NCBI GenBank assembly: GCA_964187785.1
Contig: OZ076409.1
Span: 22,756,001 to 22,820,000, forward strand
Direction of reading: 5' to 3'
DNA from: Amphiscolops sp. MND2022
Taxonomy: Eukaryota
Length of the DNA: 64,000 nucleotides
This document shows, in pieces, positions 17,401 to 56,875 of the stretch; position 1 is the first letter of the stretch; every line of letters starts with the position of its first letter. A program made the position numbers and the translations under genes. Below the pieces are notes generated by a model. The model searched no databases and was not told where the DNA came from. It worked only from the letters and a program-made list of their open reading frames with translations.

Positions 17401-18565
17401 AAAGATGGTAAAATTTGAAACAAAAAAGAACGCGCACGCAGCAATGATTTTTTTCCATTTCAAGTAGTTTGAGGCAAATACCCAAAACTTTCGATTTCAT
17501 TGCAAATTTATTGGGCCAAAACTGAATCTTTTATACTTCGGTGATGCGATTCCTTTATTTTATGGATGCTACAGCAATATTAATTGCTGATAACAGATTT
17601 TTGTAAAATTTCATTAAACTTTTTGAGACAATAATGATTTTTAGGTTCGATGAAGCTCTTGTTCATGTGAATCACCATGATTTGACCAACGTTTGTCAAT
17701 TCAAACTTGTCACATGCTTCATTTTTTCACAAAAAACTATACTGTTACGAAGCGCTATGTATGTTTTTTGCCCGCCATTCCTTTTCGTATTCAGACACTC
17801 AGACCATTGATCACTTATTGAACCAAGCGGCACCATATGAATTCTTTTTCCTTCTCATCTGATTTTTTCCTTCTCATTATTAGTGCAATCAATGCACCCA
17901 TAAATAGCGTAAACTGAAGCATTCAAAAATTTTGCGAACCTCGTAGCGGGATGCGGAAAGTTCGTTCAAATGCTTTTTTGCTGATATTTTCAGTGTGTTG
18001 AAATCTGAATTTTGAAAAGGAACTCTTGAACTTCCCAATATGATTACGCAAAACTTGATTACTTTGGACCAAGATAAAACTTTGATTTCCTTCCTCGCCT
18101 CGCTCTCCGCTATTTTTTTTCACTCAATATCCTCATTTTCACTGATGCACCAAACTGTACTACGTCTTTTGAGTGCTTCTTTTGGCATCTTTTGTCATCA
18201 AAAGCTGTTATTTTTCAACTTTTATCTTAGACGGTTCATAATTTCAGGAAGTTTTTGTTTCTGCAGAAATTGCAGAGAACTCTTTATCGTCTTTCTAAAA
18301 GTTTTTTCTATCGTCTTTTGGCTCGTTCCTTTTTGGGTCTATCCCGTCTTCCTACTCTTTTGACTCTGCTGGTTCCATCTGCACTTGAGTTTTCACGTTT
18401 TTCCGCTTTGTTTGTCCGTTTTTGTCTTTCCTTGACCGGTTGCTTCAGTTCTCTTATTGCCACCTTTTGCTTTGCTGCCATTTTTTGATTTCCAGCCAAT
18501 TATGTTGTTTTTTGTCTGCTGCTGTGTTTTGCCGCTTCATTTTGATAGGCTGGTTGATTTGTTTC

Positions 18566-18612
<47 letters not shown>

Positions 18613-21600
18613 CGGCAATTCGCTCTCTTTTGTCCATTCATTCTCTTTATATGACTCTCTCTCGCTTGGCGCTTCCGTTTGTTTTGGTGGCACCTTCTTC
18701 CATTTTGAACAGCTTTGCTGCAGTTCCCCGTGCCCATTATCTCTTTTGGAGATATTCGTCTTCTTCATCCTTCCTGCTGGCAAGACTGTGATCGAATGGT
18801 TGCATTGTTTTAGCAACACTACTTTCCTCTTCTGATACGTCCCCCGTTTCGATCCTCTCAATCTTTCTCTGACTAGGATGGTTCAATATTGTCCCGATTC
18901 GCAATCATCAACTGTCGATTTGAACTCCGGTGTTTCTGAAATGGACTTGGGTTTGTTAGTTAGAATTCTTTTAATTGTATTCGGTTCTTTGCCAGTATAA
19001 GGCTCGTATGGTGACTGGTTTCAAGCAGATGGATTCAGTCTTAGCGCGAATAATGGTTTCCGATAATCCTGAGTTATCTTTACGAACTATAATTCCTTTA
19101 CTTGCTCTCAGTCTTTCGCTTACTGTGCGAATTAGTCTTGCTGCTATCTCATTGCCTTTATGATCACAGATTTGGCATTCTACGTGCTTTATGTATTTTT
19201 TCCCACAGAATTCTTTAAAGCGCATACTTCTAAATTTGGTAGTCGGGTCGTATTCCATGAATAGCTTTGTATTCTTTCAAAAAGACTATTACTCGTACCG
19301 TTTCTGGTTTTGTTAATAATTTTGCTTGGGGCCATCCGTTAAAATGATATATTGACTCAATTAAATACTTATTCACTTTACTTGCATTCTGGAACAGACC
19401 GTCAAAATCGATTGTAATTTCATAATTATCCTCTACGCATTTGGACACTTTGTTTTTGATTCTGTCTAAGAAGTAGTTTGATGTTATTACCTGATACTTT
19501 ACACTGTTTGCTAGCTTTTGCGATTCCGACTATATCTCTGTGAAAACGTGGCCAACAGACGTTGGAGACTGTGGCAAGCATACTATATCACCCGGGATGT
19601 CCGTAGTGCAAACTTCTCATGATATTGGGACGTAATAGATTCGGAATGACCAGTCCTTTGTCCATGAAAAGGTAATCTTTGCTCTCTAGACAGAAGCATT
19701 TAATTGTTCTCTCCACTGTTACATAATTCCCAAAACATTATTTGACCCATGTAATGGCCTGTAGTTGTAATCCTTTGTTGGTAATTCCTGTTCAAAGGTT
19801 GCTGGAAAACTCGACGCCAAGTGGACTGCTCTCCAACCTTGTTCTGTTTTCTGCTGCAGTACGGTCCCTAATCATTCTCGACTGGCATCACTTACAATTC
19901 TCATCAGTTGGTTTTTCTTGAAAGAAGTATTATATTTCCGTAGTTTGTTGTGTTGCCATCTTTTTTCTTAGAAAACCGTTTTTTCTCTGTCCACTCCCAT
20001 TCCTTTTTTAAATAGTGCTTCGTAGTGGTCGTAACGATGCCCTAGGTTGTGCTAAGTTTGCAAGCAATCTCTTCAACTGATTTATTGCTCCCATGAACAA
20101 CCGAACTTCCTTTAGGCTCGCTGGTTTCAACCTGTCAGTGATTGCTTGAGATGTTTCATCGATTGGTCTCATTCAGTTCCAGACAATATGAAATCCAACC
20201 ACTCCGTGCTTGTTTGTGTTAGTTAACCTTCGTCTAATTCAAAAATAAACACGCTTCATCCAGTACTTCTTCTATTTTGCTCTTGTGATCTTTGTTACCT
20301 TTCGGTACTATCAGAATGTCGTCAATGATGCCGAATGTTTCTGAACGTTAAGAAGTGTGTTATCCACTATTTTACCGAATTTTGACGGCATTATAATCAG
20401 CCAGTAAAACAAAGTCATGAACCCATACGATCCTGTTGCTTTTCCTCCGAAGATTTAGAAGTTACCATGTCGGGCGGTTTCCAGGAGAATCTCAGTCTGT
20501 CTATATGCGTATAGCATATCTAGTGATTTGAACCTCACTGTTCCGTCTTTCCACTAGGTTCTCCAAGTTGGGATTCTGGTATTTCTCCTTTTGGAGAGCA
20601 TTGTTGATCGATCTGGCATCTAGTGCTTTTTTGACGAGTTTGTCTCGTTTGACATTTATTACTACTGGCTGTATGTATGTATACTTCGTCAGCAATTTTC
20701 TCCATTCGATGCTTGTGGCCCTTTTCTAAATACTTTTCTGTCTCTTTCTCCACAACTCCTTGGAGTTGCAACGGCACTCTTCTTCCATTCTGTTAGTTAT
20801 ATCTGCGTTTGTTCAAAACCTATTTTTGTATGTCCCTTATTTCGTCCATTCTGGTAAACAGCTAGGGAATTTTTTTTGAGTTTCCAACTGTTATTGTTTT
20901 CATTTGACCAACAACATTATTATACTCACCAATGGAATTTGCTTCACCATCATGATAGTTTAGTTGCCCCAATCAATCTCTTCCAATCATTGATCTTTTT
21001 TAATTTTGTGTGATAATGACTCTTGTATTTATCATTTCACGTTTTCCCACTTGAACTTCTACATTATTAAATCCTACTAAATTTAGTAATTGTTGTAATC
21101 CACATAGTTTTCAGTCTTAGGCATTGGTCTGGAAAATATCACAACTGTCTTCAAAAGTTTCTGCAAATCAGCGCGTGTAAACATTGATATGGGTGAGCTA
21201 GAGTCGATCATTGTGAAACAACGGTTACTTATTTATTTTTCCATTCAATACAAATGGTGGATTTCCTTTATGACCTTCTAGATGAAGCACCATATTGTCT
21301 TCTTGCTTCCTGCTGCGTTCTTCTGATTGGTCGTCCTCTCGAGGAGGTTGAATCTCCCAAATCTAGCTTGATGGTTGCTTCACTGAAGACTCTTACGTCT
21401 TCTTTGGCTTCTTGCACTTTCGTGCGAAATGGCCAATAAACGCACATTTCCTACATCTTTCGTAATCTGCCTTGCATTCCGCTAAATGACTATTTGTAAA
21501 TTCCAGGCCACTTCTTGTGCACGGGTTTTTCCGCTCGTTCACAAGGAAGATTTTATTTCTTTGTAGGCATTTTTCCTTTGTTATGTTTTCTGCTGATTAA

Positions 21601-24600
21601 TTCTCTCTTCATATGCGACTGCAAAGCGAAGGGCATCTTGTGGGTCCTCTTTCGGTTCAGTGCATAATCTTTCCTGCACGGTTTTGTTGTTCATATTCTG
21701 TATGAACGTATTCATTACTACGTTCTACGTCTGTTCGCAAAACTAGCATTTGGAACCAATCCCGTTAAAGTATGCCGAAATTGCCTGTGCGTCTCCTTTT
21801 CTTTTTGTTTTCGTGAAAAGAACTTGAATCTTTCCAGTGCTCTTTTTTCCTCAGTTTGCTGAATGCTTCATCACAACTTGTCCGATGTTCGCGTAATGTC
21901 ACGGCCGCCACTCTCATAAGTGAAAACTTGTTCGTAACACTCTTCGTGAAAGCTGTTCTTAACGATAGAAGAAGGTTTCGAACCACTTTTCTGTCTGCAG
22001 CTTGTTCGTTGAGATTGTTTATTAGGGCCAGATTTCTCGATGCTTGTTCCGTGGCTGTTCTCAACAACTCATTCAGTGATGAGTATTTTGCACTTACTGC
22101 AACTGTGAAGAGGTTCCACCACTTCTGTCAATCTATTTTAGGTGCTGTGTCCGCCGAAACTCTGTATGCTGGCAATCCCGACACCGCTGACGCTCTTCCG
22201 AACTTTGCAACTTCTCCACTGCTTGCTGAATCTCGCAGCGCCATGTTGTAGGTGAAGGCTTCGCGTAACTTTCAATGAAAACAAATTATCGATTGATGCT
22301 ACTGAATTTCAGTGTAAGACCATATGGTAATTGTTTTTTTCTTTTGCTTCCTTTTCTACTGTTGTGTTAGTAACAACCTGCCATTGTGACACAACTTAGT
22401 GAGGTTATTATGTAAGGTGACCGCTTGCGCTGTCACAATATATCTAGTTTTGTTTGCATGAATCAAAATTATGTCGAAAGCGGAGCAAAAGCAATTTCAA
22501 GAGAAATCAAGAATATTTTACTTAGAAGCAAACCAGATCTTTGAATGCCATTGTCGTAAGCACGAGAGTTTGTGGATGTAGTTGGACCGTCTTTCTGACA
22601 GTCCATAAATGGCTTACTTCTCGAGTTATCTCTGGAATCTGAGTTTCGCAGAACTTCGGAATATCCTTCCGGTCTCTCGGCCGGAACGTTCCATCTTTCT
22701 CTGGTCAAATGTCCCGATCCGGCCACAATGGCATTTTGAATCTGGGGTAAAACTTGATTGCTAATTGCATCATTTATGGCTCTCTGTATCTGAACACTGA
22801 CACTATTCATCATCTCGTCCATCTCTCTAGATATTCGGGAATTCAATTCACTCGACAGTCTATTTATCTCAGCACTAGAATTACCTCCAGCAGAGTTTTG
22901 GCCGTAATCGGCATTTGGACTAAGTCCGTCATTTCTTGAATTTAAGTACCTGTTTTCATCATTATTTTCAAATTGATCACCAAAAGTACTTTCAGGTCTT
23001 CTGGTTTGATTACTACTAAGGCTTTCATCTCTCTCATTTCTACTGAAATGGTTTTCTCCGAGCATCATATCTACATTTTCAATGTCCGAAATTATCTCAA
23101 CTCCTCTAGATTTTCTGGTTTTCTTCTGCTTTCTTGTAGGCATTAGAAAGAAAGTCCGAGGTAAAACAGTGAATTAGGTTTTATTCGGAAAATAGGATTT
23201 TGTACGTTGTATCGTAAACAGGTATATCAAACTAAACTTGGAGAAGCAAAATACAATTGTGTCCCTCTCGGAAAAATACCAATATATATACCCCTGAGAG
23301 GGTGACACTCACATTCCTTGCATGACAATCTATTTACAAATTCCATAAAGGGCACATGACCATGGCGGGTGACCACTAACATTCATTCATTTTTAGCGGC
23401 GTCAACTGCATCAAAGCACTTAGGAATTTGTCCCGTTAGGGCCAAAGGGAATTCATACCTAATTCATTCGCAGCAAAATCATTTAAAGTTTACATAAAAT
23501 ATGGAATGCACTCAAATGCATTTTCTAACTGCAAATACTATCATCAAAGGGGAGCGGAGGAATTTAGCCTTATTATATTAGGCAAACAACACTTTGACCA
23601 AACATCAAAACTAATACTTTCAAATTGTTTACAGTGAGAGGAATGTAAACTATTTAGCGGCACGTGCCTACACACGTGCGTAGAATCAACAAAACAAAGA
23701 CACAGTTTCATGCAATAGAAATGAACATAATATAGCAATATGGCCTAATACGGCCATTGGACTTGGGAGCTGGCCAATAGTGAAGGCCGGAATAGGACAG
23801 GTGACGGGTATTCGGATTGCTACTACTGGTCGTTATTATTGCACTAATTGGATTTAAAAAGCTCATTAACATCTTCAAGTATATAAATATAATCTTACAT
23901 GACTGTAAAACAAACTCATTCATGCTTAAAAGCATCTCTAATAATAATAAGCAAAATGGCCTAAACCGGCCATTTGCCTTTTGTCCTGCATTACCAATCT
24001 AATATAACGTCAAGTGGCCATATACGGCCAATCAATTAAAAATGTGTACAGCGCTTTACACAATCTGGCCTGAATAGGCTAATTGCCTCGTATTAAGTAA
24101 ACATTATTAAAATACTGGTCAAACGGCCTTAACCGTCTGAAAGAGCTAAGTCTGTGGTGTAGTTAGTTAATACTGCACTAGAGGGGTTATTCAGCCTAAG
24201 AGTACAAGCACATGAATCCTGGTTAATAATTAGCATCACAATTGCGCTTTTTGTGAAATGGCCGGAACCGGCCGTCTGACTGGATATTTATTAAAAGTAG
24301 CGAAGCTATGTCCACAGGCCTTATTCGGCCATTAATGAATGGAAGTATTAACTGCGTAGCAAATGGAGTAATTTGATTGGACAAGGCCGCGTGCTCAAGT
24401 GACGTATCTGGTACGGGATTTTATCAATAGCAACTATAATTAAAACAATTACCAACACTTCTTCTAACACTTTTAATCATGGCATCTGACGTATTAAGAC
24501 AACTTCAAGTACTTTCCAAGAAAATACACAGCACTACTGATTAAATAGCACAGATTACTTGATAAAAGCTAAATAGGCCGGAACCGGCCATTGGACCAGC

Positions 24601-27600
24601 GTTCACGAGCATAGTAGTTAGATTAAGGCAAGCGGCCATAACCGGCCAAATAATGTATTGCTGAGAGATAATGCTAATACTAGCTATACTGCACTGTGAT
24701 TGGTTAATTTGCAGGAGGCAGCCTGCGACACTGCGGGTGGAATAAATAAAAACGACCCTGCATTCAGTCTTTTCAAATAAGCTTCCTTCATCATTGCTGT
24801 GACCTAGGCCGGCTCACCTCTTGGAGTGACCGGGCACGAAACTGTCTTTGATTTCGTTCAAGTATTGTACACCCTTGGTACCATCGATTAGGAAGTTGGG
24901 TCCGGATGTGTCAGGTCCAAAGGCCCAGATCTTTCGCAGGTCATCGGGTCCCCATTGTGCTTCTACCAATTCAGCTTCATTATCGTCTCCTTTCACGAAA
25001 GTCTCGTATATAAATCGAGTTCTGGCCTTGGCTTCGTCACTGGCCTTAACGTCACCAAGGTCAATCTTTTCAGCGAGTCCTTCCAGGAAAGGATCTGCGG
25101 TAACGAATAATCGGTTGTGCTTGTTGGGAGACTTGCTGAGAGCAGGCTCTTTTCCCGATGAGATGACAGTTTCTCTGAAGGACACGACGGGGTCTTTCTT
25201 GATGATGGGAATACAAGCGTGGTCCTCCTCCAAATCTTTCAAACAGATCTCCAAGTGCAATTCTCCGGCACCTGCCACCTAATTTGCCAGAACGCGAAGT
25301 TGCTTCCACCTCTGGAGCCAGCTGACATGCCCTCTTTTCCCAAGTCGGCCTTGATGAGTTTGCCATCGTATGTATAGACAGCCCACTTATTGGATACCTT
25401 CAGAGTTGGCGAGTGAGTTCCCAGAAGAAGTCTCTCGCCACAAGGAGACCATTCGAAGCATGTGATATCTTGGAAATCGACGATCTTCGCAATCAAACTG
25501 AACGTGGGTCGATACCAGATTTCTACGTTACTTCTCACTCCTCCGTGGCCGTAGAGCGCCAGCAAGTGGCCCTGAGGCGAAAAGCTACACGCGGTTCGCA
25601 GCCCAGTCCCGAAGTCATACACAGAAGAACATTTCGAGTTGAACAAGGACGCTTTTGAAGGCATGTGTCCATAAGTAACACAGAATTCGCTGACGTTTGG
25701 ATCCCAGCAAATATTGTAGATTGGACCCTTCTTGTTGAGTTCCACAATACTCGAGGAGCCCTCTGTCGAAATGTAAAAGAGCATGGTCTCTCCATAGTAG
25801 GCCTGTCCCGATTGATCCACCTCAGTCATGGACTTGATTATCAACCCATTTCCTGGATTGTTCCAATGCAGGGTCGCTTTATCAGCTTTGAAGAAGCTCT
25901 TCGAAGAAAGTGCCGAGTACTGGTCCAGGTCGGGAAATCTCAGAATCTTCACAACTGAAGGCGTTCCCTTTTTAGATCCGGCCACGTAAATGGCAACATG
26001 ATAGGGCTCTTTAGGTAACATTTCAACAACAGTCAGCCCTGGGATATTCAACTTGTACTTCGGGGTGCTGAAGTCACCATCGACATAGAAAACAGCTGTT
26101 TCCTTCAGAAGTTTGCAACAAACTTTCTCATCGTCAGAAAACTGAGGTCGCCAGTTCTCGAAAGATCCTTGTGTGAAGGTTGCAACAACATCTTGTCCCA
26201 AGAAGGAGAAAATGCAAATATTGTTCTGACTTTTATTGGCATTGCTAAAAGGTTCGAATGTGGAGATGTATGTATTTTTCGGAGAAAATTCAATACTGAT
26301 CACTCGAGACTTTGGATGCTTGAAGACAACTTGCAAGTTTGATGCATTAAAAACCATGAGGTTTTCAGCATCGCACCATGCGAAAAAATTACCACAACTG
26401 CTCCAACTGAATACCTGGTTGACTGAACGCTGAGTGGCTTTCGCATCAATTTGACGAGGCGAATAAGCTGTAGGCCCACTGGTTGGATAGAGGAGAAAGC
26501 CTTCGTTGCCTCCGACACAGAGATGAGGCAACGATGCACCTTCACTATCACCACCTTGCTGGCTGGTCATTTTATTTCTTTGCTAACCTTCGACTAAATG
26601 ATTGCTCTCAGAGTTGCGTGCTCAGAATTTACCTCAGAAATATCAAAATTTGATTGAAAATCTGAAAATCGAGTACGTCAGAGCTGGGTTTCTTTAAAAT
26701 CAAGTATCAAATCAAAACAGCGAACACTAAAGTAAGTGGGAAGCACTATCAATGACAGTAGAAGCAAATTTTTGATTGACAAAGGTTTCATCACAGGCGA
26801 ACACAATTCTGTTTTCTGAATCCATTGACGTAGGGTACACGGACTTTTTCCACATGTTGCAATCTATTTAATAAGTTTATCACAACAATTACAATTAGGC
26901 TTTCGATAAAAGGGAAATTGGAAAGTAAAATGGCGAAAATAATAACTAAAATAATCCAGAATGCGGAAATTCTAACTAAATGGTAATAAGGGCAACGGAA
27001 CAAAACGGCAAAACGGAACAAGGTAAATGGCCATAATCGGCTTCTAACTAACTGATTTGTAAATAATGAGCAATCTTCTGTACATTTCGCTGGCAGACTC
27101 CATGCACAGTTTTAAATTCGTAAATAGCCATAAAATATTAACCCGGTAATCTCTTCAGCCACGAACTCCAACTTTTCAATTTTGATTATCATTATTCTAA
27201 TTCCTTTTTTATTTGGATTTTTGTTCATTTGAATTCATCTTTACGACGTCCATCTCTCTCCGACTTCAACTTTGTTGCTGACTACATTTTCCTCGGAGTA
27301 TTCCGGAGCATCTTCCTCTTTTCAGCCGAGCTCGGCCACTTTCCCCAACTTCACCAGCCGAATGAGGACGGTTACCCAGAAGGAGTTTCCATCACTGCAG
27401 GATGTCTTCAAACACAAGTTGATCTGGATTTTTATTTTGAACTAATTTAACTTGATCAGGGTTAAAATTTGTTCACAAAATGCTTCCTGCTTCCATCACT
27501 AAACACGTGATAACACGTTTCATTCAAATTTTTAGAACACTTTCGAAAGGTTTCTGACGCGGCAAAATGGATTTCTTTCAAGGAAGCTAACCGCCAAATT

Positions 27601-30600
27601 TCATCTCTTTCTGTTTATAGAATCAGAACAAAGAGACTACTCGAACACCAGATCCCAATTCACCCGTGGGTACAGGTTATGCTGTTGTGTTTTCACCGCC
27701 CCTGTTTCCTCCTCTTAGAGTAGAGAGGTCCCCAAGTAGTACTGACAGTGTTGATGTTACAGCTTACGCTGACGAAAAGGTCAGACTCCATGCAGAGGCT
27801 CAATTGCTAGAAGGGTCACAGGTCGCTGAATCATTCATGGCGACCAAGAGACAAAGGACGAAGAAGGAAGAAGGGTAGATGCAGTAGGAGGAGAAGTAGA
27901 AGGAGAGGTAGAAGCAGAGGGAGGAAGGACTTTAAAAATGAAAAGGAAAAGAAGAAAAGAGAGCAGTGTTCCTTCTTGGACGCCTATTAATCTTTTCCTA
28001 GTATCTGAAGTCTTCTGAGTAGTTTGAATTAGGATTAGGTCTCAAACTATATCTTCCACCTCTAGGACTCAGATTTTCATTCCCTTCATCATTTTGCGAT
28101 ATTTCGGGCACGATAATATCATCCCCCCTTTTTGGAGATTTTTGTGCATCGCTTTCATTAGCAGAATTTCGTTCTGAAACATTTGCATTGTTTTCTTGTC
28201 TTTCGGACAGATCCGGCAAAGATTTTTCTGGATTTTTGTGGTAAACGGCCGAATCCGGCCAATCAGAGTTTTCATTTCTAGTAGCTTCACTATCTTCATT
28301 TGCATTGCTGACGTCACTTTTCAGTCGTTTATCTCGACTGTGCTCTGTATCGTTGACGTCATTCGGACAATCAGTCGTGATTATGTAATCCGCTTCATTC
28401 TCGCTTGCGTTATCTGCGTTCGCTTTTGCCGTACTCGGTCTTTCTTCATTCGGCAAGCTAGCCGGAATAGGCTCGTTGCCTCGTGTAGCTAGCTGTTCAC
28501 CAAAGTTTGTTTCCCACGTAACTGTGTACAAATCGTCCTGCGGAATGACAATTCCTTCGTCCGGCAGTAATCGCTCTTCTCGGAAAATGTCCTCAAGCGG
28601 TTGATTGGGGACAAACTTTTTGAGGCGAACTCGATGCAAGATCTGAGTTTTAAGGTTACTGTTGGTTGACAGGGGTATACAGTCTGGTTCACCATTTTTG
28701 GTAATGAGTACATTCTGGAACTGTCTCTCGTCTAGTAGCGATTGTGGAATTGATTCTGCACAGTTTTCGATATTCTCGGTTCCCAAGGGGTTTGGAAACA
28801 CCGGATGGTTTAGCGCTCTGGTTTTCTTGTTATGGGTAATTGGAGGGTTCTCGTGGACTGTCTTGTTGCAATGTTCAATATCGTCTAGAACATATTGAAA
28901 TTGCAATAGATCCTGGTTGCAGATCTCAGTGTCCCAGTAGTGATCTCTTCCATAATCTGGGTCGATGTATGTAGGGTTGTAGTCGACTACTAAGGGAATG
29001 GGCCTGAATCGGGTAGTAAAGGTAGTTGTGTAATCAGGATCCCAAACAGGAATTGATTTCTGGAACAAATGGGTATTATTATAGGTAATAATGATAGCTT
29101 TTTCAATTTGCTGCTGCCAGACAACAGAAGGATAGCCCATCAATTGTTGTTGGTAATTATGAAAGTTTTTGGTTTGAGGGTCCGATTTGATGTATTGACG
29201 GACAGAGACTAGTTGGTTGTATTGGAGTGGTGGCGAAGCTAGTTTTTTGACTCATCTTTGCTTGATGAGGATTGGGAATTGGATGATGTTGGCTTGTGAT
29301 GGGGTTTTGAGGATTTAGGGTCAGGATCGCTGTCCGACGAGTCCTCTGGCCTGGTGCGTTTGGGCTTGAGATGCGCACCAGCACCTTGCCAGCATCTCTC
29401 CTCAGGGTGGTTTGTCTTGCCACATGTCCCACATTTAGGATAAACCTTTTTCTGTGTGGGCTTGCCTTGTTGGGCATCTTTCTCCTTCTTCTTTTTGCGC
29501 TTTTCACAGTCTTTGACGATGTGGCCCTTTTCTTTGCAATAGTTGCAGGTAATGTCACTCATTTGGACGTTTGATGGAAAAGTTTTTGTTTTTGTGGCTG
29601 AAGACGTCATTGATGCCATTGGTAGGTCATCAGATTCTTCAAGCGCGTTTAGCTCCAATTCTCTCTCAAGATGAGCGACAATTTCGTCATAGGAGCCGTT
29701 CTCTAATCTGGCCATATTTACTGATCTTTTTTGCTTGGGCGGCAGTTTCGCGTATAGGAGACTGTCAATAATCTTTTGGGCATGGTCTCCGAATGCTTTT
29801 TCTGCGCCTTGATTCAGCTCTTCAAAAAAATGTGGTAGTTTTGTCGTATTTGGATCAAATACCAGACGGTGCCATTTATGTTTGGCAGTTGCTTGAGATT
29901 CGGGTTTGACGTATTTCCGTCTGAAGATGACTAATACGTCCTCGAGAGTTTGTCTGTTAGCTGTGCTAATGTTTCGGAATGTTTGCAGAGCGTTTTTTCT
30001 CAAAAGCGAATGAAAACGATTAATTTTCATCTGCTCGGACATCAACTTGATCATCGTGTGGAATAGATATACGAACAGCCCGAACTTCTTGCTTTTGCCG
30101 TCAAAAGTCATAGTGTTTGAGTTGACTGGCCGGATAGTGGGTTGTTGGGCTGTTGGACGGTTCTGCATACTGGTCGAGACATCAGCTAGCCTGTTGATAG
30201 GGTCTTGTTCCGGGGCCGGAACGGTCCTTTCTTGTGCTGGGATCGTCGTGTCGAGCAGGGGATTGAGGTCATCATGAGATCGGTTGAGATGACTTCTTGA
30301 TGGCGTTCGTCCCGTGAGAAACTCAGGAATATCAGTTGGAGATTCGTTTTCTCCTGTCACCATGTCGTAAGCACGAGAGTTTGTGGATGTAGTTGGACCG
30401 TCTTTCTGACAGTCCATAAATGGCTTACTTCTCGAGTTATCTCTGGAATCTGAGTTTCGCAGAACTTCGGAATATCCTTCCGGTCTCTCGGCCGGAACGT
30501 TCCATCTTTCTCTGGTCAAATGTCCCGATCCGGCCACAATGGCATTTTGAATCTGGGGTAAAACTTGATTGCTAATTGCATCATTTATGGCTCTCTGTAT

Positions 30601-33600
30601 CTGAACACTGACACTATTCATCATCTCGTCCATCTCTCTAGATATTCGGGAATTCAATTCACTCGACAGTCTATTTATCTCAGCACTAGAATTACCTCCA
30701 GCAGAGTTTTGGCCGTAATCGGCATTTGGACTAAGTCCGTCATTTCTTGAATTTAAGTACCTGTTTTCATCATTATTTTCAAATTGATCACCAAAAGTAC
30801 TTTCAGGTCTTCTGGTTTGATTACTACTAAGGCTTTCATCTCTCTCATTTCTACTGAAATGGTTTTCTCCGAGCATCATATCTACATTTTCAATGTCCGA
30901 AATTATCTCAACTCCTCTAGATTTTCTGGTTTTCTTCTGCTTTCTTGTAGGCATTAGAAAGAAAGTCCGAGGTAAAACAGTGAATTAGGTTTTATTCGGA
31001 AAATAGGATTTTGTACGTTGTATCGTAAACAGGTATATCAAACTAAACTTGGAGAAGCAAAATACAATTGTGTCCCTCTCGGAAAAATACCAATATATAT
31101 ACCCCTGAGAGGGTGACACTCACATTCCTTGCATGACAATCTATTTACAAATTCCATAAAGGGCACATGACCATGGCGGGTGACCACTAACATTCATTCA
31201 TTTTTAGCGGCGTCAACTGCATCAAAGCACTTAGGAATTTGTCCCGTTAGGGCCAAAGGGAATTCATACCTAATTCATTCGCAGCAAAATCATTTAAAGT
31301 TTACATAAAATATGGAATGCACTCAAATGCATTTTCTAACTGCAAATACTATCATCAAAGGGGAGCGGAGGAATTTAGCCTTATTATATTAGGCAAACAA
31401 CACTTTGACCAAACATCAAAACTAATACTTTCAAATTGTTTACAGTGAGAGGAATGTAAACTATTTAGCGGCACGTGCCTACACACGTGCGTAGAATCAA
31501 CAAAACAAAGACACAGTTTCATGCAATAGAAATGAACATAATATAGCAATATGGCCTAATACGGCCATTGGACTTGGGAGCTGGCCAATAGTGAAGGCCG
31601 GAATAGGACAGGTGACGGGTATTCGGATTGCTACTACTGGTCGTTATTATTGCACTAATTGGATTTAAAAAGCTCATTAACATCTTCAAGTATATAAATA
31701 TAATCTTACATGACTGTAAAACAAACTCATTCATGCTTAAAAGCATCTCTAATAATAATAAGCAAAATGGCCTAAACCGGCCATTTGCCTTTTGTCCTGC
31801 ATTACCAATCTAATATAACGTCAAGTGGCCATATACGGCCAATCAATTAAAAATGTGTACAGCGCTTTACACAATCTGGCCTGAATAGGCTAATTGCCTC
31901 GTATTAAGTAAACATTATTAAAATACTGGTCAAACGGCCTTAACCGTCTGAAAGAGCTAAGTCTGTGGTGTAGTTAGTTAATACTGCACTAGAGGGGTTA
32001 TTCAGCCTAAGAGTACAAGCACATGAATCCTGGTTAATAATTAGCATCACAATTGCGCTTTTTGTGAAATGGCCGGAACCGGCCGTCTGACTGGATATTT
32101 ATTAAAAGTAGCGAAGCTATGTCCACAGGCCTTATTCGGCCATTAATGAATGGAAGTATTAACTGCGTAGCAAATGGAGTAATTTGATTGGACAAGGCCG
32201 CGTGCTCAAGTGACGTATCTGGTACGGGATTTTATCAATAGCAACTATAATTAAAACAATTACCAATACTTCTTCTAACACTTTTAATCATGGCATCTGA
32301 CGTATTAAGACAACTTCAAGTACTTTCCAAGAAAATACACAGCACTACTGATTAAATAGCACAGATTACTTGATAAAAGCTAAATAGGCCGGAACCGGCC
32401 ATTGGACCAGCGTTCACGAGCATAGTAGTTAGATTAAGGCAAGCGGCCATAACCGGCCAAATAATGTATTGCTGAGAGATAATGCTAATACTAGCTATAC
32501 TGCACTGTGATTGGTTAATTTGCAGGAGGCAGCCTGCGACAGCCATTATTATGTTGTAAGCCATTTCAGTGGACTACATTTAACCATGCAAATTAACCAT
32601 TTAACCATTCGGGAACTCATACCCCAAAAAGTCTCCGAAACCAGACCTAAAAGCCTTTTCTGCAATAAATTTATCATTCAAGTCACAATTGCAGCTCGAA
32701 GGTGCTAGAAATACTTTTTACGAATACTACATCAAAATTTGAAAACTGTATCGAGTACTTAAACTAGCTAAAACAAGCGTAATGTTTCTGTACACGTGTC
32801 AACGTGTTTACATTTGCGTGGGGTGTTTACGATACATTCTCGACACAAAACCTTGCATGAGATCCCACAAAATCATAACTCTACTCTGCAAAGCAAAAAA
32901 TTCAGGTTCTCAGCTAGCTTAAACATAAATTTAAACTCTCTTGACGTTAGTGTCGGAGGAATACTTAACAGCAAGCTGTCAAATGAAAATGGTCCATTTG
33001 TGTCAATCATAACTCAGTGATAAAGAAAACACAGACTGATACGCGCTTCTGTTACCTTATCTGACATGAGAATCGGCAACTGTCTATTCTGCATGTGAAG
33101 CATCTACTTAATTGCCATCCTTATTTGGATAAGTTGCACGGTTTCCGTGCGAAAAGAATTTAATTGCAACATTAACTTCTCCCCAAGAAGTGTAAATAGT
33201 GGAACATTTTCCTTTTGCCCACAGGCAAAAAATTATGAGCAGAAATGGCAAATATTGCATAAATCAGTAATTGATTATATGAATATATGTGTAGTCATCA
33301 AAAAGGAGTAAAATAGAATGTTTTGGGTAAAGAATCAATTTCATTATACACACCAAAAGTGGATAAACTTTAGGATAGTACCTATGAATCCACAATGGAG
33401 GTAGCAGAAGCAAACAATTACCCCAAATCCACGGGTGGACGCCGACTAAGCAGTTCTACTATTCTACACGGCGCCCTTTTCGGATACTATCTCTCCATAG
33501 CAAGCTATGTTACCATGTTTGGAGCAATTGGTCAAACAATGGCCGGCTTGAAGATGTGGTTTCAATGTGACTTGCACAAGGTCACAGAGGTCTGACTGCT

Positions 33601-36600
33601 CACCGTTGCTTTTTTTGCTTTTCTCCGGTAAAAGTTTCATTTTTTGTCATTGACCATACCACTAAGCTAGGGATGAAGGACTAGCTGACGGCCCAATGGT
33701 CAGTTGAGAGAGAGTCGAACCTGATACTGTGCAAGTACAAGTCAAGTTCTCTAACCACTACACCATGCTCCCCAGGTACACTATTAATTATTACAAAAAA
33801 GATCTAAGTACTTGATTTTTTCCTTTTTACTGGAGGTTCGCTTTGTGTAAATTCGCCACTGTGTATCAGCAAAGTACCGGGTACTTCAAGTACCGTACTT
33901 GTGATATCAGTTTGGAATTTTTACCCTGGAAGGCCCCCTTTTGACGTTTTCTGTTGAAAAAGTATATGGAAAGTTTCGAAGTACCACTGCCCCTCTTGTT
34001 TTGTTTATTTTTTTTCTCAGATCCTGCAAAATTCCTGCAGAGAAACGTTCTTCGCCAAGGATAACCGCAAGGAGAAGTCGTCTTCGAACACCCACTAGCT
34101 TCGCTAATTAGGTTTCGCTGCAATCCGCGTGGTCTCTCATTTATAGCAGTCGAACAATTTGGAAACCACAATAGATTCCATAGTTTCTCATCTTCGAAAA
34201 CTATAGCTTCTGATTAGACTCTACCGAACTAAATTACTGCATGTTTTTCAGTAATGGTAGCCAGTTCGTTCCAATCAAACTCATCGGTAAATTTTGTGAA
34301 GTCATCTCGGACGAGTGTGTCAATTTTTTCTCAGTCTTAATAGCAGTTCCGTAATCCGTGAACTTCGTTGAATCGTTTTCAAGGCAAGTAATGCTAAGAT
34401 CAGTTTTGAATAAAATAAATCGAGAAGTTCTTAGTGCTGACACATGTGATATATCACAATGACTTCACTTTTCACTCGTTCATTTATCAGTAGTGCTGAT
34501 ATTTTCCGTTCAATGTTGAACGATATTCACAAACAAATTGGGATTTAGCTCCTGAAATCGAACGTTTTTATCTTTTTTAATCAGTTAAAAATTATATTAG
34601 ATTTACTAAGGTAAATGAGGACTCCAGCCATGTTGGTCTTCATCAATGTCTCTTCTATGAGACAGTAACTGTTGCAATTGCAGGTACAAGACATGAGAGA
34701 TCTGAACCAGAATTAGATGCTTAAAGTAATTTATGTTCATCTGTCTGTAACGGAAGCCTGTGGCACAACGAGTTTTCAGAAAAATCGACCAAAAATTCTT
34801 TCAAATCTGACGTGGCAAATTGAGCATGTTTTGGCCAAAGTACCTGTCAAAAATCAGTACAGAAGACGAAGCAAGCCGTCCGGACGGGAACACGGAGTGT
34901 AGAAGCCAATGCGCTTAGAAAACTCATAAATAGACTCTTTTTGAGGTGCTAACTCCGGTTTTTACCGATTTTCAGCATTATGCTACCCAAAGTAGCGGAA
35001 ACCGGAAAAATGCGTCTTTTCGCTTATTTATCCTTTTTTGGTGCTTGGAGTGCCTGCGCCCCAGCTTGTAGCTGTGTGGTTGGCCATATTCGTGCCTATT
35101 TTGATGTGTTTCTACTGTATTGCTTCGCCCAAAAGGTGCCATTTTTGTTTGTGCGTAAAATTTTCCAAGGTTTTCAGTTTTTCCTCCAAGTTTCAACGTG
35201 ACACTCAAAAGGTGTGGAGCTCGCGCGCTCCAAATATCTTAATTGCTGAATTTTGTCTACTCTGGCCTACTTCATTCCAGTGCTTACACTCGCGAGCAGT
35301 TCGTAGTTTGCTTATACGCAGCTTAACCGATGCTACTGAACTCTTTACAGGTATGGAGCTTCACATCAGTGCGTGTTGCCCAAACCAAGCCAAACTGTGA
35401 AGAAAAAGTATTGAAAAAACAGCTAGTTTTCCTTTTAAACAGTGGTTTTTCCGCTGAAAAGAAGTTTCACCGAGAACGTCTCTTAATTTTCTGGAAACTG
35501 GATTTTTACTGCCGTGGAAAAGAAGTTTTCCATGAGAACCACGTGCGTTTTGGAGCCTGACGACTCCGTAAAAAAAATTTTAGACGTCCAAACGACCACT
35601 GTGCTAGAAAGATCCTATTCAAATTTGGTGCGAAAAAAATCTTGTGCTAACAATTTGATGCTTTTTTTGGGATTTGATCAATTTCAAGGTGCATTTTTGA
35701 GTACTTTTTTCTAACTCGAGGGCTAGCTCTGTTTCAACAGTTTGTGGACGATGCAGGTTCCTGGATTGCAAGAAGCAAGACCTCAAGGTTGCCCAATCAG
35801 TGAAAAATGACAGTGCCACGGGACCCTTGCAAAAAAACATCAGTTTGAACTCCCAGTGGATTGCAATGATGTGGAGATGTTTCCAGCTTCTCCGCATGAC
35901 AGGGACGTCATTCCTAATACCCGGGGAGTGGATGTAACGGAAGCTTGTGGTACAACGAGTTTTCAGAAAAATCGACCAAAAATTCGTTCAAATCTGACGT
36001 GGCAAATTGAGCATGTTTTGGCCAAAGTACCTGTCAAGAATCAGTACAGAAGACGAAGCAAGCCGCCCGCGGAGACGACAGACGACCGAACGGGAACACG
36101 GAGTGTAGAAGCCAATGCGCTTAGAAAACTCATAAATAGACTCTTTTTGTGGTGCTAACTCCGGTTTTTACCGATTTTCAGCATCATGCTACCCAAAGTA
36201 GCGGTAACCAGAAAAATGCGTCTTTTCGCTTAATTATCCTTTTTTTTGGTGCTTGGAGTGCCTGCGCCCCAGCTTGTAGCTGTGTGGTTGGCCATATTCG
36301 TGCCTATTTTGATGTGTTTCTACTGTTTTAGCTAGCCCATGCGCTAATTTTCGCAGTTTAGATCTTAGTACCCATTTTAGACCTTATTCACATGTCACCC
36401 TGGAATTTCACCCTGGAATGGAGATTTACACTGTTTATGCTTGGCGTTGTTTTTAAAGGTTGTCTAGACGGTGGTTATGAAGAGAAAAGGCATAATGCCC
36501 GTTATTCTCAGCAGTTACAGACTGGAACAGACCGGAGAGCATCCCTAGAGACGGTTCCCCCTTCTCGGGACCGGCATTCCTTAGGAGGACAAAATGGACT

Positions 36601-39600
36601 GGAGTTGTGGTGATTAATCCCGAATCTTGACCCATAGCTTCGGTTCCTTCATCCCTTGTAGCGAATAAACGCTCAGCGCTTTTCATTACAGTCGCTTCAG
36701 AAAAAATGTTTCGAAAACTTTATTTAATGGAATAAGTAAGTTGATCAGGGTAAAGTAACATGCAAGTAACATGTAAGTAGCAGTCGGAAATATTTCTGTC
36801 TTCATAAACGTTTGAACACGTTTGCCATTTTTTTGCAATCACTGGGGAAGAACAAGATAGCATTTCGTTTAAGACTCTATCAAAGCAACTTCTTTTTTTG
36901 ATTTTCAATCAACGTAGTTCTGAAAATCTTCCTTTTCATTTCTTGGTTGTCGTACGTTTGACAATATCAGTCTTCATTATTTGCATATGGTAGCGAACTT
37001 TTGATTTTGCTAGCGATAAATGTATTTCAGCTGTCACTTCAATACGATCATTCATGGTTGTTCGCAAAGTTTCAGTTGTTTTTGTTCGTTCTAGGTGAAA
37101 ATGTATGATCAATACACGTTTTGGATGTTGGCGTTCTTATGGTTGGTAACAAGCTTTGTAAATGGTTCTTCAAATAGTAGTTTGATTTCGTTTCCGTCGG
37201 AATGGTCTGAGAAAGTTGGGCCCTCTAGGAATATTTGAATGTCAATTGAGCAGTACTTTAAGGCTGCCCTAAATATGCAGCATCACTAAACTTCGGTTTA
37301 AAACGATTTCGTAGTTTTGAATTTTGCTTGTAATTGTTTTCAGTTATCCATGTTGCACTTGGTAACATGGCTTCAGGTTTGTTTAGGAACGTTTGAAGTA
37401 GCCATATTATGCCTGGCTGATGAAATCCTGATTAGACTTCATCTCTAGCCCGCTATTCCAGATATTTTCAAAAACAATTCTTATAAGGTGATTTCGAGGA
37501 GTGAATATAAAAGTTTTTTTTTATTTCAGTGCATTTAGCCACATCATTAAAGCAGGCATTTTCCCTGTAGGAGTTCATTGTTGTAATCTCGGTCTATCAC
37601 GATAAAAAGGTTCTTTATCTAAGACGATAAATTCGTATCTTCTTTAGCAACTAATCTATAGTATCAATCTCATGTTCAATGGTCAATACTCTATTGTACA
37701 ACACTAAATGTAGTAAACTCAAATTGACAGTAATTAGAGTTTTATGTTTGACAACAATAATATGCTCTCTGTCTAGGTTCATAGTTTTGAAGGTCATGAT
37801 ATCCACATGATATCACATTCCCCCCTCTTCGGGGTTGTCCGATGGGGATTTGTTGTAGTGGCCGTATGGTACGGATTTCTTCATTGTTTTGCCGCATTGG
37901 ACGGTCGTTCTTCGTCTCATTTCTCTCCGCTGTTTCCGCTGTTGTTTCCTGTAATAAATTACCGTGGTTAGTTAATTTTTTCTTATTGTTACTAATGTGG
38001 TACGGTATCCCGCCTAATTTTTCGGTTTGTTTTGCAAAAGGTAGTCTATTGGATCTTCTGACCGGTTCTATCGGTTTTTCTGTTCTATTTTTTCTTTTAT
38101 AGCTACCTTGTTCCGGTGTCAGGTTAGTTTCCTTCGGGTGGAGCTGAAGTTCATCTTCGATGTTGACTTGTATCGGTTTTCCTTCCGCTTTATTGTAACA
38201 TTCGAAGTCGTCATCGTCAGATATGATGCTCAGGTTTAGGTTTTCTGTGTTTTTGTTTGGTGAAGTAAATTGTCCCTTGTTGTTCCTGGGTATTTCCTTT
38301 CTTTTCGACCAGTCCTCGCTTCTTTCGTAGTTTGCGGTGTTCTTCGGTGTTTCTTTCCTGCTGTAGATGCAGGGTGCTCCGCTGGTGGTTGTATTGTCCA
38401 GTGTTTTGGAGCAGGTGGGTTGGTCTGCGGTGTTTTGGCGGGTGTTGATCTTCTTTGCCGGTGTTGTTGTTTGCTGAAATGGTAGCGGGTTGGATATTAA
38501 TTTCCTGTGGATAACTTTATTTTTATCCGTTGTTACGGTGTGTCTTGTTCCAGATACAGCGGTTTGTACTTTATTTTTGAATTTACTTTCCATGGATCCT
38601 TTTTTGTAGTTTTTTTCGTAAAATTTGAAAGGATATTCAAATTTACTTACCGCACTGGTCGGTTTTTTTGTTTGGGAGAATGTCATCCCTCGCTTGTATC
38701 TTGGTTCGGCTATCTTTTTCTTTGACATTACCAGGTGATCCGTGATTTGTCCGGTTGAATTTCTGGTGATATACACCGAGAGATCTTTGGAATCCACTGA
38801 AATAGAATTTTTTAGGTTAGACAGTTTGGTTCTTGGTGTCCGTCCGAAATGTAATTCAAACGGAGTTTTCTTTATTTCTGAATGTATTGTAAATCTTAGG
38901 ACGTATAGTGCTCTATTTACGCTTTCACGAAGGTTTTGGTTGTCTTCTAGATTTGCCAGAGTTAGGTTCTTCAGCGATTGGATTGTACGCTCGACCAATC
39001 CGGTGCCAGTATGTAGGTTTGCCGTACCGTATATGCGGTTGATATTATGCGTCTTGCAATATTCTATGTATTCTTTGGAGATAAAGGCGCCGCCTTTGTC
39101 CGACTTTATTTGTTTCGGTACTCCGTATACATTTATGTATTCATTCAGAAATGAAATGACGGTTTCATGGTTCGTATTTTTGCATATTTTTGCTACGGGC
39201 CATCGGCTATTTTTATCCACCGCAATTAGTATAAACGGATTGCTTTGCAGTTTTTTATTGTTGAGATTTCCCGTAAAATCAATTTGTATTTCTTCACCAG
39301 GTGTTTTTGTCGGTTCGATTTTTGATTTTTCGGTTTGGGGTATTTGGAATTTTAGATTCTTACCAGCGTTGAGGCAGGCTGAGCAGGTTTTTGATTTCTT
39401 TTCAATATCTTCCCGCATGTTCGGCCACCAGAATATTGCTGCGTCGCTGTACATTTTGTTTATCCCGGGATGTCCAAAATGTAGTGCATTGAGTGCTGCG
39501 TAGCGTAGTGATTTTGGAATTACGATGCGGTCGTCGACCAATATAATGCCCCAACGGTATGTCAGTTTCTTGGCTACGGTTTTGTAGTTCTGCGGAATTT

Positions 39601-42600
39601 GATCCAATTTGTTGTCCTCGATGCAGCAGTTTAGTTCGATGAGATCAGGGTCAGCGGCCGTCTCCTTGATTATCGTTTCCAAGTCTAGCATGAAATCTAG
39701 TTCTGCCGATCTGACGTTATCTTCTTGTTGTCTGTTACGCTTCGGTTTTTCTTCAACTACGCGGTTGATTCTCACGTAGTGTACGGCAATTTCTTCGATT
39801 GGCCCGTCTCTGTATTCTTGGACTGGTATTGCTGGGTAAGTTCCGGGTTCGTGGGTGGCTACTGCTTCCTCCGAGTTATTTGAGACGGTGGATTCTGTGT
39901 CTCGGTTGGTTTCATTTCTCTCGGTTTGTTGTTGTTCGGTGTTTTGGGTCTGGGGAATGTCGTCCCCAAAGTTTTGAAAATATCCTCCGCCGATATGTTG
40001 TTCTCTGATCTTTTGTCTCAGTTGAATGTCAATTCGCTTTATTTCTCTTCTTTCATCTTCTTCCGGTCTTCTCGGTATGTAAATTTCTCGGCCCAAATTC
40101 TTGTTGAAATGTGGTCTCATTACACCCGGTCTCGCCAATTGTACTCTTCTTCTCACGAGTTCCGAAGTTTCGGGTGATTTATCTCTTGCATTGATAATGG
40201 CCATGATATCGTCATCTGCACCCCAATGGTGTCGTAATTGTCCGTCTGTGCGGAAGAAGCGTGTATTGTTTTCATTGTTATTCATTTTTATACAGTCAGT
40301 ATTGGATGAATGCTGTTGTATGCGGTAATTAGAATCAATATGGCTTTTGTTTGTTTGGTAGCGTCGCGTGTCAATTAGCGAGCGCGTATCACGCATGTTT
40401 GCTTTGGCTGCCGTGGTCGCGTCTTCTGATTGGTCGAAAATCCGTCCTATTCGGGCGTTTACCGTTGCTAGTTGCGCGATGGCGTTAATAACAAATTCTT
40501 CTTCGTAATTTTCTTCCGGTTCTGGATTTTCGGTGGGATTTCGGCTGATGAAATCCGTGAATTTGATTTCTTTGCCGGCAGTGTGTTTTAAGCAGATGTC
40601 GAAGTGGTTCAATCTGTCTAGCCATCGTGTTAGTCGCGCACTATATTGTTTATTTGTCTTGTTTCTCTTCAGGAGGGGTTCTAGTGCTTGATGGTCCGAG
40701 AATAATTGGACTTGTTTGCCATATAAATGGAATCTAAATCTTTCCAAGCCCCATACGACGGCTAATAGTTCTAATTCTCCGATAGAATATTTTTTTTCGG
40801 CGTCGTTTAGGTATCGGCTGGCAAATGCTATCGGTTTTAGTTCTCCGTTGCCTTGTTTTTGCCAGAGTGCTATTCCCAAACCAGTTTTGCATGCGTCGGT
40901 TGTGACGATGTTTTCTTTGTTGCCGTTGTAGTGTGCCAAACAGGGTAATGATGTTAGTTCTTGTTTTATTTTGTTGAAGTCCGAATTTCGATCGGTTGTC
41001 CATTCCCATTTCGTCCCTTTTTTGAGTAGTTGTCTCATGTTGTCTGTTTTCTCGGATAAATTCGGTATGAATTTCGCAAAGTACTGTATAGCTCCGAGGA
41101 AAGATTTTAGTGCTTTGGCGTTTGTTGGTGGTTCTAGTTTATTTATCGCATCTGTCTTTTCTTTGTTTGGCCTGATTCCGTCTTGTGATATCGTATGTCC
41201 GAGCCATATTGTTTCTTTTTGATAGAATTTTGACTTCTTTTTGCTTGCTTTGTAGCCTTCATTTTCCAGTTTTGTCAGTACCGAATATAGTTTTCGGGTA
41301 TGTTCTTCTTTGGTTCCACGTGTGACAATTATAATGTCATCTAGCCAAACTGGTGTTTGGTGACCCAGGGTTCTGTCTATTTTTTCTTGGAAAATCGTTG
41401 GTATGTCGGCGGGGCCGTAGAATCCTTTTAAGAATCGGTAATATCCATTTATTTTCTCTCCTGTCATTGCAAAGTTGCAGTGTTTGCTTGTTTCGGGGGC
41501 CAGTTTCATTTGTCCGTATGCGTAGTCGAGGTCTACTACGGATATCCAAATTGGGTCGCGGTCGTTTTTGGATAATTCGGCTGATATTTGATTTAATAGT
41601 TCTTCCATATTTGGCATGTGTGGCCTTTTCTTTACGCAGCTGTCATTGAGTTTTCGGGCGTCTAGCGCGATTTTTACCGTCTTGTCTTTCTTCACCGTAA
41701 TTACAACGGGTGATACAAAACAATCTTCTTCGATTGTTTCTAATCGTTCGAGATGTCCGGATTTTATTAATCGGTCCAGTTCGTTTTTTACGTCTTTTTG
41801 TAAATGGTACGGTATTGGTCTGGCTTTCTGCTGGATGGGGTAGCATCCTGGCTTTATTTGAATTTTCACTTCTATATTTTTAATTGTATGGTTTGTTTCG
41901 AATAGTTTGTTGAATTTCGCGTAGATGGTTTCTGATTGGTTGGTTGGTTCGTCCAATTGAATTTTGTTGATGGTGATTGGTAATTGTTTCAACCAGTTCA
42001 CGCCTAATAATGGAGTGATATCGTTTCTTTTTGTAATTAGGATTGGTAATTTTGTTGTCTTTCCGTTGTGTTCGATATCGGCCCATATTTTCCCGAGGAA
42101 TTGGATTTCGTTTTTGTTTACGTCTTGATATCTTTCTTTCAGGGGTTTTATATCTCTTTGGTTGTAGAGTTCTGGGTTGTTTGGCATTATTGTAACTGGA
42201 GAGCCGGTGTCAATTGTGAAATTTTGGTATTTGCCGTTAATTTTTAGTTTGATCCCGTAGTTATCGTTTTCATCCGGTAGTACTCTATTGATTTGCGTGA
42301 TTTGTTGTATTTCTTCTGGTTCACTTTCTTCTTCTTCGGTGTATGTTTCTTCCAGGTAGTTGATTTTTTGCTTTCTCGTGTTCTTATTGGTTTTGCTGCG
42401 GCAAACTCTTGCGAAGTGTCCCATTTTGTGGCAATTATTACATTCTGCCGTTTTTGCCGGGCATTTGTGTGATGGTGACCAGTTTTGCTGTCCGCAGAAA
42501 CCGCAGTTGTTGTTTTTTGCGGTTGTTTCGGTATTTTTCCGGTAGTTTCGTGGTTGTATCTTCTGTATGGGTTCTTCTTTAATTTCTTTTTCTTTCGCCA

Positions 42601-48600: not shown

Positions 48601-48690
48601 AAATTTTGGTGAAGATATTAGAATATCTCATATATGTGATATTCTAATATCTTCACCAAAATTTTAACTGAAGTATACTTCAGTTAAAAT
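48601..48690. repeat. Two abutting loop-less palindromes (48601-48664, 48661-48690)
   Basis: 64 bp with one mismatch and 30 bp perfect. Confidence 0.92.
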
Positions 48691-49305: not shown

Positions 49306-49664
49306 GTGAGCATATACAGCACCATACCTGTTACATGTTACATGTTACATGTACTCCGTGGTTATAAAGGGGAACGCGCATCTTGAGGCGACAAATTAAT
49401 AAACCGACAATCAAATATTGATTCGAGGCAAGTGGTTTCAATACTGATCGACCATGCGTCAAAATTATCATTCCGGTCGACCTAATGGCTTGTCGGTTTA
49501 ATTGCCTGTCGGTTTAATTGCCGGTCGGTTTAAGGCTTCACTTCCTTATAAAGGGATTTATATATTTCAGATAGCTTCCACTTACGACCTCATGCGCGGC
49601 AACACATAGAACAAATGAGGATTATAAGGTTTAAAGGTTGGACCATAGTTGAAACTGCTTTTTA

Positions 49665-49941
49665 CGGTGGCAAGACAAAATAACCAAAGTCAAAATAACC
49701 AAGGTCAAAATAGCCAATGCCAAAATATCCAATATGCCAAAATAGCCAATGCCAAAATAGCCAAGACCAAAATAGCCAATGCCATATAGACCAATACCAA
49801 AACAGTCAAAGTGACACTATAACATTGGCTATTATGTCACGTTGGCTATTTTGGCATTGGCTATTTTGTCACGTTGGATATTTTGGCATTGGCTATTATG
49901 GCATTGGTTATTATGACTTAGGATATTCTGACATGTAACCG
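49665..49941. mobile_element. Foldback-type MITE made of inverted arrays of a ~15-bp unit (caaaatagccaatgc)
   Basis: CGGT...ACCG termini; flanking direct repeat cttttta on both sides. Confidence 0.7.
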
Positions 49942-56104: not shown

Positions 56105-56875
56105 GCCGTGTTGAGATCCCATGGGTTCCCATGCATGGCCATCGATTGCCCTTGGTCCGTCCCTGGGGTTAATTCGGAGGCACAGACCGCTCCCCATCGA
56201 CGTCCCATTGACGGCCCAGCAATGGTCCATCAATGGCAAAAAAGTGTCCGAAAACCTCGAATTCGGCAAAATTTCAGTTATGAGTTTTGAGTGCTGTCAT
56301 GCAATATCATTCCGGTTTGGGTTTTTGGTTTCAAGGGTTTCCCTAACGACCCGTGTAGCATTAAGGACGCTTTTCGGATTTTCTAGAGCCGCTAGATAGG
56401 TAAAAGTTTTTGTATTTTTGGAGCAATTTTATCGATTTAGGAGCAATCAAAAAATTGGCATTTTCATATTTTAGGTGTATTTTCTTGGAGGAGTATTTAA
56501 AGATTAAGATCTAGAGGAATAAGATCGATCGTTTAGATCAAAAACTTTGACATGAACAACTTCGTAAAGGAGAATAAGATCTAAAAGTGAGAGGAATAAG
56601 ATCTAAATTTAGATATTATTCCCTTTTCCGATCAAAGTATTCAGATCTTATGCCCTCCTCTAGAGAAATTAGTTTTTTTGACTGTTCATGGTTCAGAGTG
56701 AGAATTCTCAAAATCTATAGTGAATTCCAGATCAGGGTTATTTTGGCTCTTCGAAGGTAAAATTTTTTTACTTCGATGGTAAAAAGGTCGGCGGCCATGT
56801 CAATGGGCTATCGATGGGGATGCGATGGCCCATCGATGCCCCATGGATGGGCTATCCTGGGAACCCAACCCGGGG
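56105..56875. mobile_element. Probable non-autonomous TIR element with catcgat/cccatg subterminal repeats
   Basis: ccgtgttgagatccc vs reverse-complemented end ccgggttgggttccc; GC-rich repeated motifs at both ends. Confidence 0.45.

Follow-up and report, generated by a model that had tools for sequence, protein, structure and literature searches.

An eIF2A-eEF2 junction carried by a multi-copy LTR element in an acoel: a probable case of template switching during LTR-mediated retroposition

Introduction

The closest described systems are the LTR-mediated retrocopies compiled by Tan and colleagues (Tan et al. 2016, PMC5131818). Microsimilarity is reported there at 25 of 29 retrocopy junctions, with a median of 6 bp, and is absent from the other 4; signs of secondary retroposition are reported as well. 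The paper describes Drosophila CG4799_CG11924_r, carried by the Pao element BATUMI, a chimera in which partial mRNAs from a pair of genes take the place of internal element sequence and all three switch points have microsimilarity; it also cites maize Bs1, with three captured genes in one LTR element, and the mouse "Super" retrocopy, with four genes plus Alu (PMC5131818).

Here, we analyze a locus in a 64,000-nt stretch of Amphiscolops sp. MND2022 DNA (hereafter the window) in which coding sequences of two translation factors, eIF2A and eEF2, are joined inside an LTR element. As in CG4799_CG11924_r, the two partial messages replace internal sequence, and as in Bs1 and "Super," several unlinked host genes are involved; the features given for LTR-mediated retrocopies, namely about 6 nt of microsimilarity, bases added de novo now and then, the lack of poly(A) and signs of secondary retroposition, resemble what we find (PMC5131818). 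The differences from CG4799_CG11924_r are the acoel host, the translation-factor coding sequence, and a pol-less carrier with 2.2-kb LTRs; microsimilarity is supported here at one of three joins, by codon constraints, and at all three in the Drosophila case (PMC5131818).

Our locus also resembles another system. In retroviral transduction of host mRNA, reverse transcriptase (RT) switches at a short shared sequence, and the resulting defective genome needs a helper. The switch at a short shared sequence and the helper dependence are alike in the two; our locus, unlike those transductions, shows no sign of selection, and no env-like gene was identified in it.

Results

The cargo lies within an LTR element on the minus strand, whose direct repeats of 2,179 nt differ at one position (2,178/2,179 identical). 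Both LTRs begin with TGTCG and finish with CGACA, and the target-site duplication (TSD) ATGGC flanks each outer end, at 32542-32546 on the 5' side and 22547-22551 on the 3' side. In the order of the minus strand, the element consists of the 5' LTR (30363-32541), which includes gag codons 1-197; an adjoining primer-binding site (PBS)-like stretch that starts with TGG, assigned by position only and of approximate extent (30345-30362); a gag-like ORF of 571 aa with a weak CCHC knuckle (29239-30954); ORF2, of 380 aa, without a PR, RT, RH, or IN-core domain (27998-29140); an unassigned 1.4 kb that contains the element-to-eIF2A join and the eIF2A 5' UTR (26571-27997); the eIF2A and eEF2 pieces; an ORF3 remnant; and the 3' LTR (22552-24730). 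No tRNA gene was found in the 64-kb window.

The carrier belongs to a multi-copy family: The cluster of its LTR-borne ORF has 80 members, that of gag 71 and that of ORF2 62. Since the ORF2 relatives among the members listed are similarly short, the loss of pol predates the capture of the cargo. A Pfam search of the carrier copy returned no pol domains and no match of any kind for ORF2; three ORF2 relatives gave nothing above the Pfam cut-off, and ORF2 is also unlike the pol of the neighboring Gypsy element. Comparison of ORF2 with the atlas yielded weak leads to integrase C-terminal clusters (0.88-0.89), and at a guess ORF2 might be an integrase C-terminal tail. The carrier Gag has weak zf-CCHC and DUF1759 matches, below cut-off; the family may belong to Gypsy or to BEL/Pao. 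No DNA of the family was found with a gag query against viral and genome contigs, and a 14-nt element pattern had 118 loci, none of which (0/118) resembled the element by blastn.

Several other features were observed in and around this family. Its gag begins within the 2.2-kb LTR (197 codons) and continues across the PBS (30954-30363); because gag starts inside the LTR, the 3' LTR also carries the gag N-terminus (23143-22552, minus strand), which runs on into flanking DNA, and the same holds for every 3' LTR. By eye, the cargo element appears to have inserted beside or into what looks like an older gag-pol-like sequence in advanced decay, at about 18400-22550 on the minus strand. A full-length Gypsy element lies at 37145-43951 (minus strand), with identical 239-nt LTRs, a PBS, a polypurine tract (PPT), and one 1,841-aa PR-RT-RH-IN ORF; a direct repeat of 435 nt (99.8%) stands on either side of it in place of a TSD of 4-6 nt, and this repeat could be a target duplication of unusual length or an artefact of the assembly. 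The window further contains spacerless near-perfect palindromes of 64-182 nt (10497-10678, 44149-44214, 48601-48664, and 63827-64000), which could be hairpin elements or could stem from amplification; tandem-like duplications whose period is close to 1.19 kb (56711-59029, 99.6% identical, and 34746-36329, 91.7%); and a 15-nt repeat array arranged as an inverted pair (49661-49941), MITE-like or minisatellite-like.

The upstream cargo ORF is eIF2A (Pfam PF08662, E=4.7e-54; human eIF2A, E=9e-87). It comprises codons 1-433, the WD-propeller part (25272-26570, minus strand), retains its ATG, is free of stop codons, and spans the region of solved propeller structures; the C-terminal ~170 residues are absent. 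The closest named relative is from the acoel Convolutriloba macropyga (69%), and other proteins reach 94% and 90%, which makes an acoel host very likely. One genomic-type eIF2A ORF matches the cargo N-terminus at 41 of 43 residues. Five intron positions, near codons 43, 111, 168, 201/202, and 367/368, are all read through in the cargo; they were deduced from the short genomic-type ORFs P0178, P0180, P0181, and P0182 (4 of 8 hits were informative), and both the reading of such ORFs as exons and the assignment of P0158 and P0181 to the host's own genes are judged from breakpoints, contig sizes, and identity. Since these five introns are missing, the eIF2A piece evidently derives from a spliced mRNA. 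An alignment-based search for eIF2A in metagenome contigs found nothing.

The downstream ORF is eEF2 (vertebrate residues 546-683, E=7.6e-52), here a fragment of 150 codons from V531 to G680 (24829-25278, minus strand), without an ATG start of its own and out of frame with eIF2A. The genomic-type ORF P0158 is identical to it at 147 of 150 residues and extends from about G508, through HVVAG, to WATKE (E687), after which intron-like sequence follows; P0043 breaks where P0158 does, and P0159 resumes there. Judged from these ORFs, both ends of the eEF2 piece lie within one host exon. Because the piece sits inside a single exon, its lack of introns is uninformative about an RNA origin: RNA origin is what we infer for it, and capture of this piece as DNA fits equally well. 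The proposal of the earlier note that RT jumped between two cellular mRNAs stands for eIF2A, which comes from spliced mRNA, and may hold for eEF2. Its corollary that three joins are required (element-eEF2-eIF2A-element) is borne out by the LTR context together with the mRNA origin of eIF2A.

At the join between the two pieces, the minus strand reads ATT AGG TGG CAG GTG CCG at 25283-25265 in the eIF2A frame and GTG GCA GGT GCC GGA from 25278 in the eEF2 frame. Homology to eIF2A stops at W432-Q433, where near-parental proteins read FWQIAWQ followed by K or R, and homology to eEF2 begins at V531, where near-parental proteins read DHV-VAGAG. The seven bases GTGGCAG (25272-25278) thus encode both W432-Q433 and V531-A532-G533, as had been claimed: Bases and both readings are present, and both homologies are strong. 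The overlap was tested on back-translated near-parental proteins, in place of parent DNA. All seven patch bases (7/7) are compatible with the codes of both parents, and the eIF2A code fails from 25271. When 498,150 clean joins were simulated, a dual-code fit of at least 7 nt arose in 1.13% of them, and among 200,000 simulated joins with a scar of 0-3 nt it arose in 0.73%; cargo DNA took the place of parent DNA in this single, post hoc test. On this basis, the patch exceeds chance at about the 1% level (post hoc). Four to six of the seven bases must be common to both parents, and 2-6 of them must form an uninterrupted run, the figures varying with the position of the crossover; identity of the parent DNAs over the full 7 nt is likely. 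Within the 450 nt of eEF2, TGGCAR has a single occurrence, which lies at the join and in the eIF2A register.

The bases just before the patch fit less well, and the earlier view that the join contains no filler is doubtful. Base 25280 is incompatible with both parent codes, and 25279 is compatible with eEF2 alone; together they form the AG of codon 431, which is Arg (AGG) in the cargo, Ala in the three closest relatives (P0001, P0155, and P0178), and Cys, Ala, or Gly in three more distant proteins. None of 15 other Arg codons counted in the cargo is AGG, and a change from Ala to AGG takes two substitutions. A conserved Glu five codons upstream is altered too; two altered codons among the last eight has P ~0.02 at a background of 12/433 (17 window-specific residues minus five that are native according to P0181). 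Because Arg431 and its AGG codon are unlike the relatives, AGG is otherwise unused, and the changes cluster, we favor a probable junction scar of 1-2 nt at 25280-25279, a reading that draws on the relatives' proteins. Arg431 could instead be native to the host, in which case there would be no scar. As had been stated, there is no poly(A) at the junctions: No run of six or more A occurs in 24731-27000, and both pieces end within coding sequence. The two frames are offset by 2, and the eIF2A reading ends ten residues past Q433; an in-frame eIF2A-eEF2 fusion protein is ruled out by this offset.

The 3' outer join had been placed at about 24835. Downstream of it lies a 3' remnant of ORF3 (24684-24828, minus strand), recognized by homology to relatives, which runs into the 3' LTR and has an in-frame stop at 24806-24804. 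A search with the remnant returned 27 proteins, 24 of them shorter than 400 aa; among these 24, ORF3 homology extends from 24827 in 20, and none continues upstream in frame. The eEF2 code fits as far as 24829, with a single mismatch at 24834, and the ORF3 relatives and the eEF2 code together move the join to 24829/24828, with the element taking over again at 24828/24827. Ser precedes Thr in 19 of the 24 relatives, which limits any in-register overlap at this join to 1 nt at most; a slipped overlap could exist in the family's own DNA. In the window, the 18-nt pattern of the 3' junction has one occurrence. Nine queries failed to locate the upstream part of ORF3, which in the longest relative amounts to about 200 codons, in 28000-26571; the score of the best query was reached by 20 of 200 shuffles. 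Because homology starts at 24827 and the upstream part is missing, the cargo evidently replaced element sequence instead of interrupting it. A stretch at 26860-26595, picked out by eye as a possible ORF3 N-terminus, was rejected, as none of the nine queries beat the shuffles. The 5' join, from the element to eIF2A, is located within 27997-26571.

Of the ORF3 family itself, we note a CxxC motif, a length of up to ~260 aa, and two occurrences in the window, 24828-24684 (minus strand) and 65-702 (plus strand). Two tested members had no Pfam match, and the reading frame crosses the plus-strand primer region and continues in the 3' LTR. That primer region is not purine-rich in the carrier family (CCACCCGCAG before TG), unlike that of the relative at 596-605.

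Compared with near-identical genomic ORFs, 5 of 193 cargo residues are different, among them the conserved-site changes R20G, F26L, and S679P. The carrier has private residues at 4/571 positions in gag and 4/380 in ORF2, each compared with 14 listed members. Because the changes in cargo, gag, and ORF2, together with the stop in ORF3, are too many to match 1 difference in 2,179 nt of LTR, an older cargo-bearing copy probably transposed again, the capture preceding the latest transposition. The appearance of an earlier capture could also be produced by differences between haplotypes or species, by gene conversion of the LTRs, or by collapse in the assembly, and the divergence of the cargo would be overstated if the near-identical ORFs belong to a different haplotype or species, as they may. 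The only ENA member of the eIF2A cluster is this window, and no second cargo copy backs re-mobilization.

Discussion

Based on these findings, we propose that RT template switching made the junction and left a small scar, probably in a copy that preceded the most recent transposition, and we hold this reading with fairly good confidence. RNA of the non-autonomous LTR element would have been co-packaged with host eEF2 and eIF2A RNAs in a virus-like particle, where RT supplied in trans would carry out reverse transcription. During minus-strand synthesis, RT would quit ORF3 near 24828 and copy 450 nt of eEF2 RNA; it would then shift to spliced eIF2A mRNA, the nascent strand pairing over the (G)TGGCAG patch, and extension from a slightly mispaired end would introduce one or two wrong bases. 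RT would proceed into the eIF2A 5' UTR and then back to the element, and the product with both LTRs would integrate with a 5-nt TSD, an earlier capture copy probably being re-mobilized later. All joins may have arisen in a single cycle of reverse transcription, and in this order. Both pieces are in sense orientation relative to the element, and the locus has the cargo between both LTRs, ORF3 replaced, the eIF2A introns lost, and no poly(A), as in LTR-mediated retrocopies.

The main rival is a DNA-level capture of eEF2: an LTR-mediated eIF2A retrocopy would have formed first, and the repair of a later double-strand break, in which a genomic eEF2 exon or an eEF2 cDNA was copied via microhomology, would then have put eEF2 sequence in place of the 3' portion of eIF2A and a portion of ORF3. 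End-joining repair typically leaves microhomology with one or two scar bases, and the eEF2 piece sits inside a single exon (G508 to E687). We nevertheless regard this account as unlikely: The ectopic donor would by coincidence have to be another gene for a translation factor, and in sense orientation, for which abundant mRNAs offer a simpler account of donor choice (an inference on our part), and the eEF2 piece contains no intron sequence. Rather less probable is template switching without homology, in which the overlap of W-Q with V-A-G would be fortuitous and the AG at 25280-25279 de novo filler. Base 25280, which fits neither parent, and the 3' join without a clear in-register overlap speak for it, as do the bases that Tan et al. 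report as added de novo at 3 of their 29 junctions (PMC5131818); the scarcity of a 7-nt in-register fit among random joins with a 0-3 nt scar (0.73% of 200,000) speaks against it.

Splicing deserves separate mention, for both contexts resemble splice sites: A fusion made in cis or in trans, with ttag|GTG serving as acceptor in eEF2 or CAG|GT as donor in eIF2A, could have been retroposed afterwards. A check set beforehand asked whether the join coincides with an eEF2 exon boundary, and it did not go against the fusion reading: P0158 runs unbroken through HVVAG, as does P0043, and because such genomic-type ORFs cross the join site, ttag|GTG is not an eEF2 acceptor. The eIF2A exon of a close relative (P0178) is likewise uninterrupted through IAWQKRPAADF, with no donor after Q433. 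Moreover, the parent codes permit no AG before V531 (V530 is GTN) and no GT after Q433 (K/R codons), and an acceptor's TTAG would be lost from the spliced product. We give splicing hardly any weight. A chimera from library amplification or assembly seems just as improbable. The four zero-spacer palindromes, perfect or nearly so, and the 435-nt duplication in the window could have come from amplification, and a single copy is on record; joining genomic DNA, on the other hand, cannot remove five introns, and the TSDs match, the element ends are coherent, and the cargo is sensibly placed in ORF3.

As for the product, the out-of-frame chimera is most likely a pseudogene, and because residues at conserved sites have changed, the cargo appears to be decaying. 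Bs1 is counted by Tan et al. among potential encoders of functional proteins (PMC5131818), in contrast to our out-of-frame cargo with its conserved-site changes. There is a small chance that the truncated eIF2A is expressed as protein. It is a long shot that ORF3 was exchanged for a stop-free, ATG-bearing eIF2A propeller without its C-terminal tail, which the element expresses and has re-mobilized; if true, the element would have transduced a shortened host translation factor that influences how element or host mRNAs are translated, comparable to retroviral oncogene capture.

We regard the eIF2A-eEF2 locus as genuine and as a reasonably well supported addition to the known cases of LTR-mediated retroposition; the mechanism is already established, and the product is probably non-functional. 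In the mostly open-access literature that was searched, we found no case of an LTR-mediated multi-gene retrocopy in acoels; a chaetognath paper on an unrelated matter was all that came up. The locus provides a switch point between two mRNAs that formed in nature and probably bears a scar of mispairing, and it apparently extends LTR-mediated multi-gene retroposition to acoels. With about 60-80 related ORF sequences, this young family is well suited for testing the frequency of host-mRNA capture and a possible bias of capture toward abundant translation-factor mRNAs.
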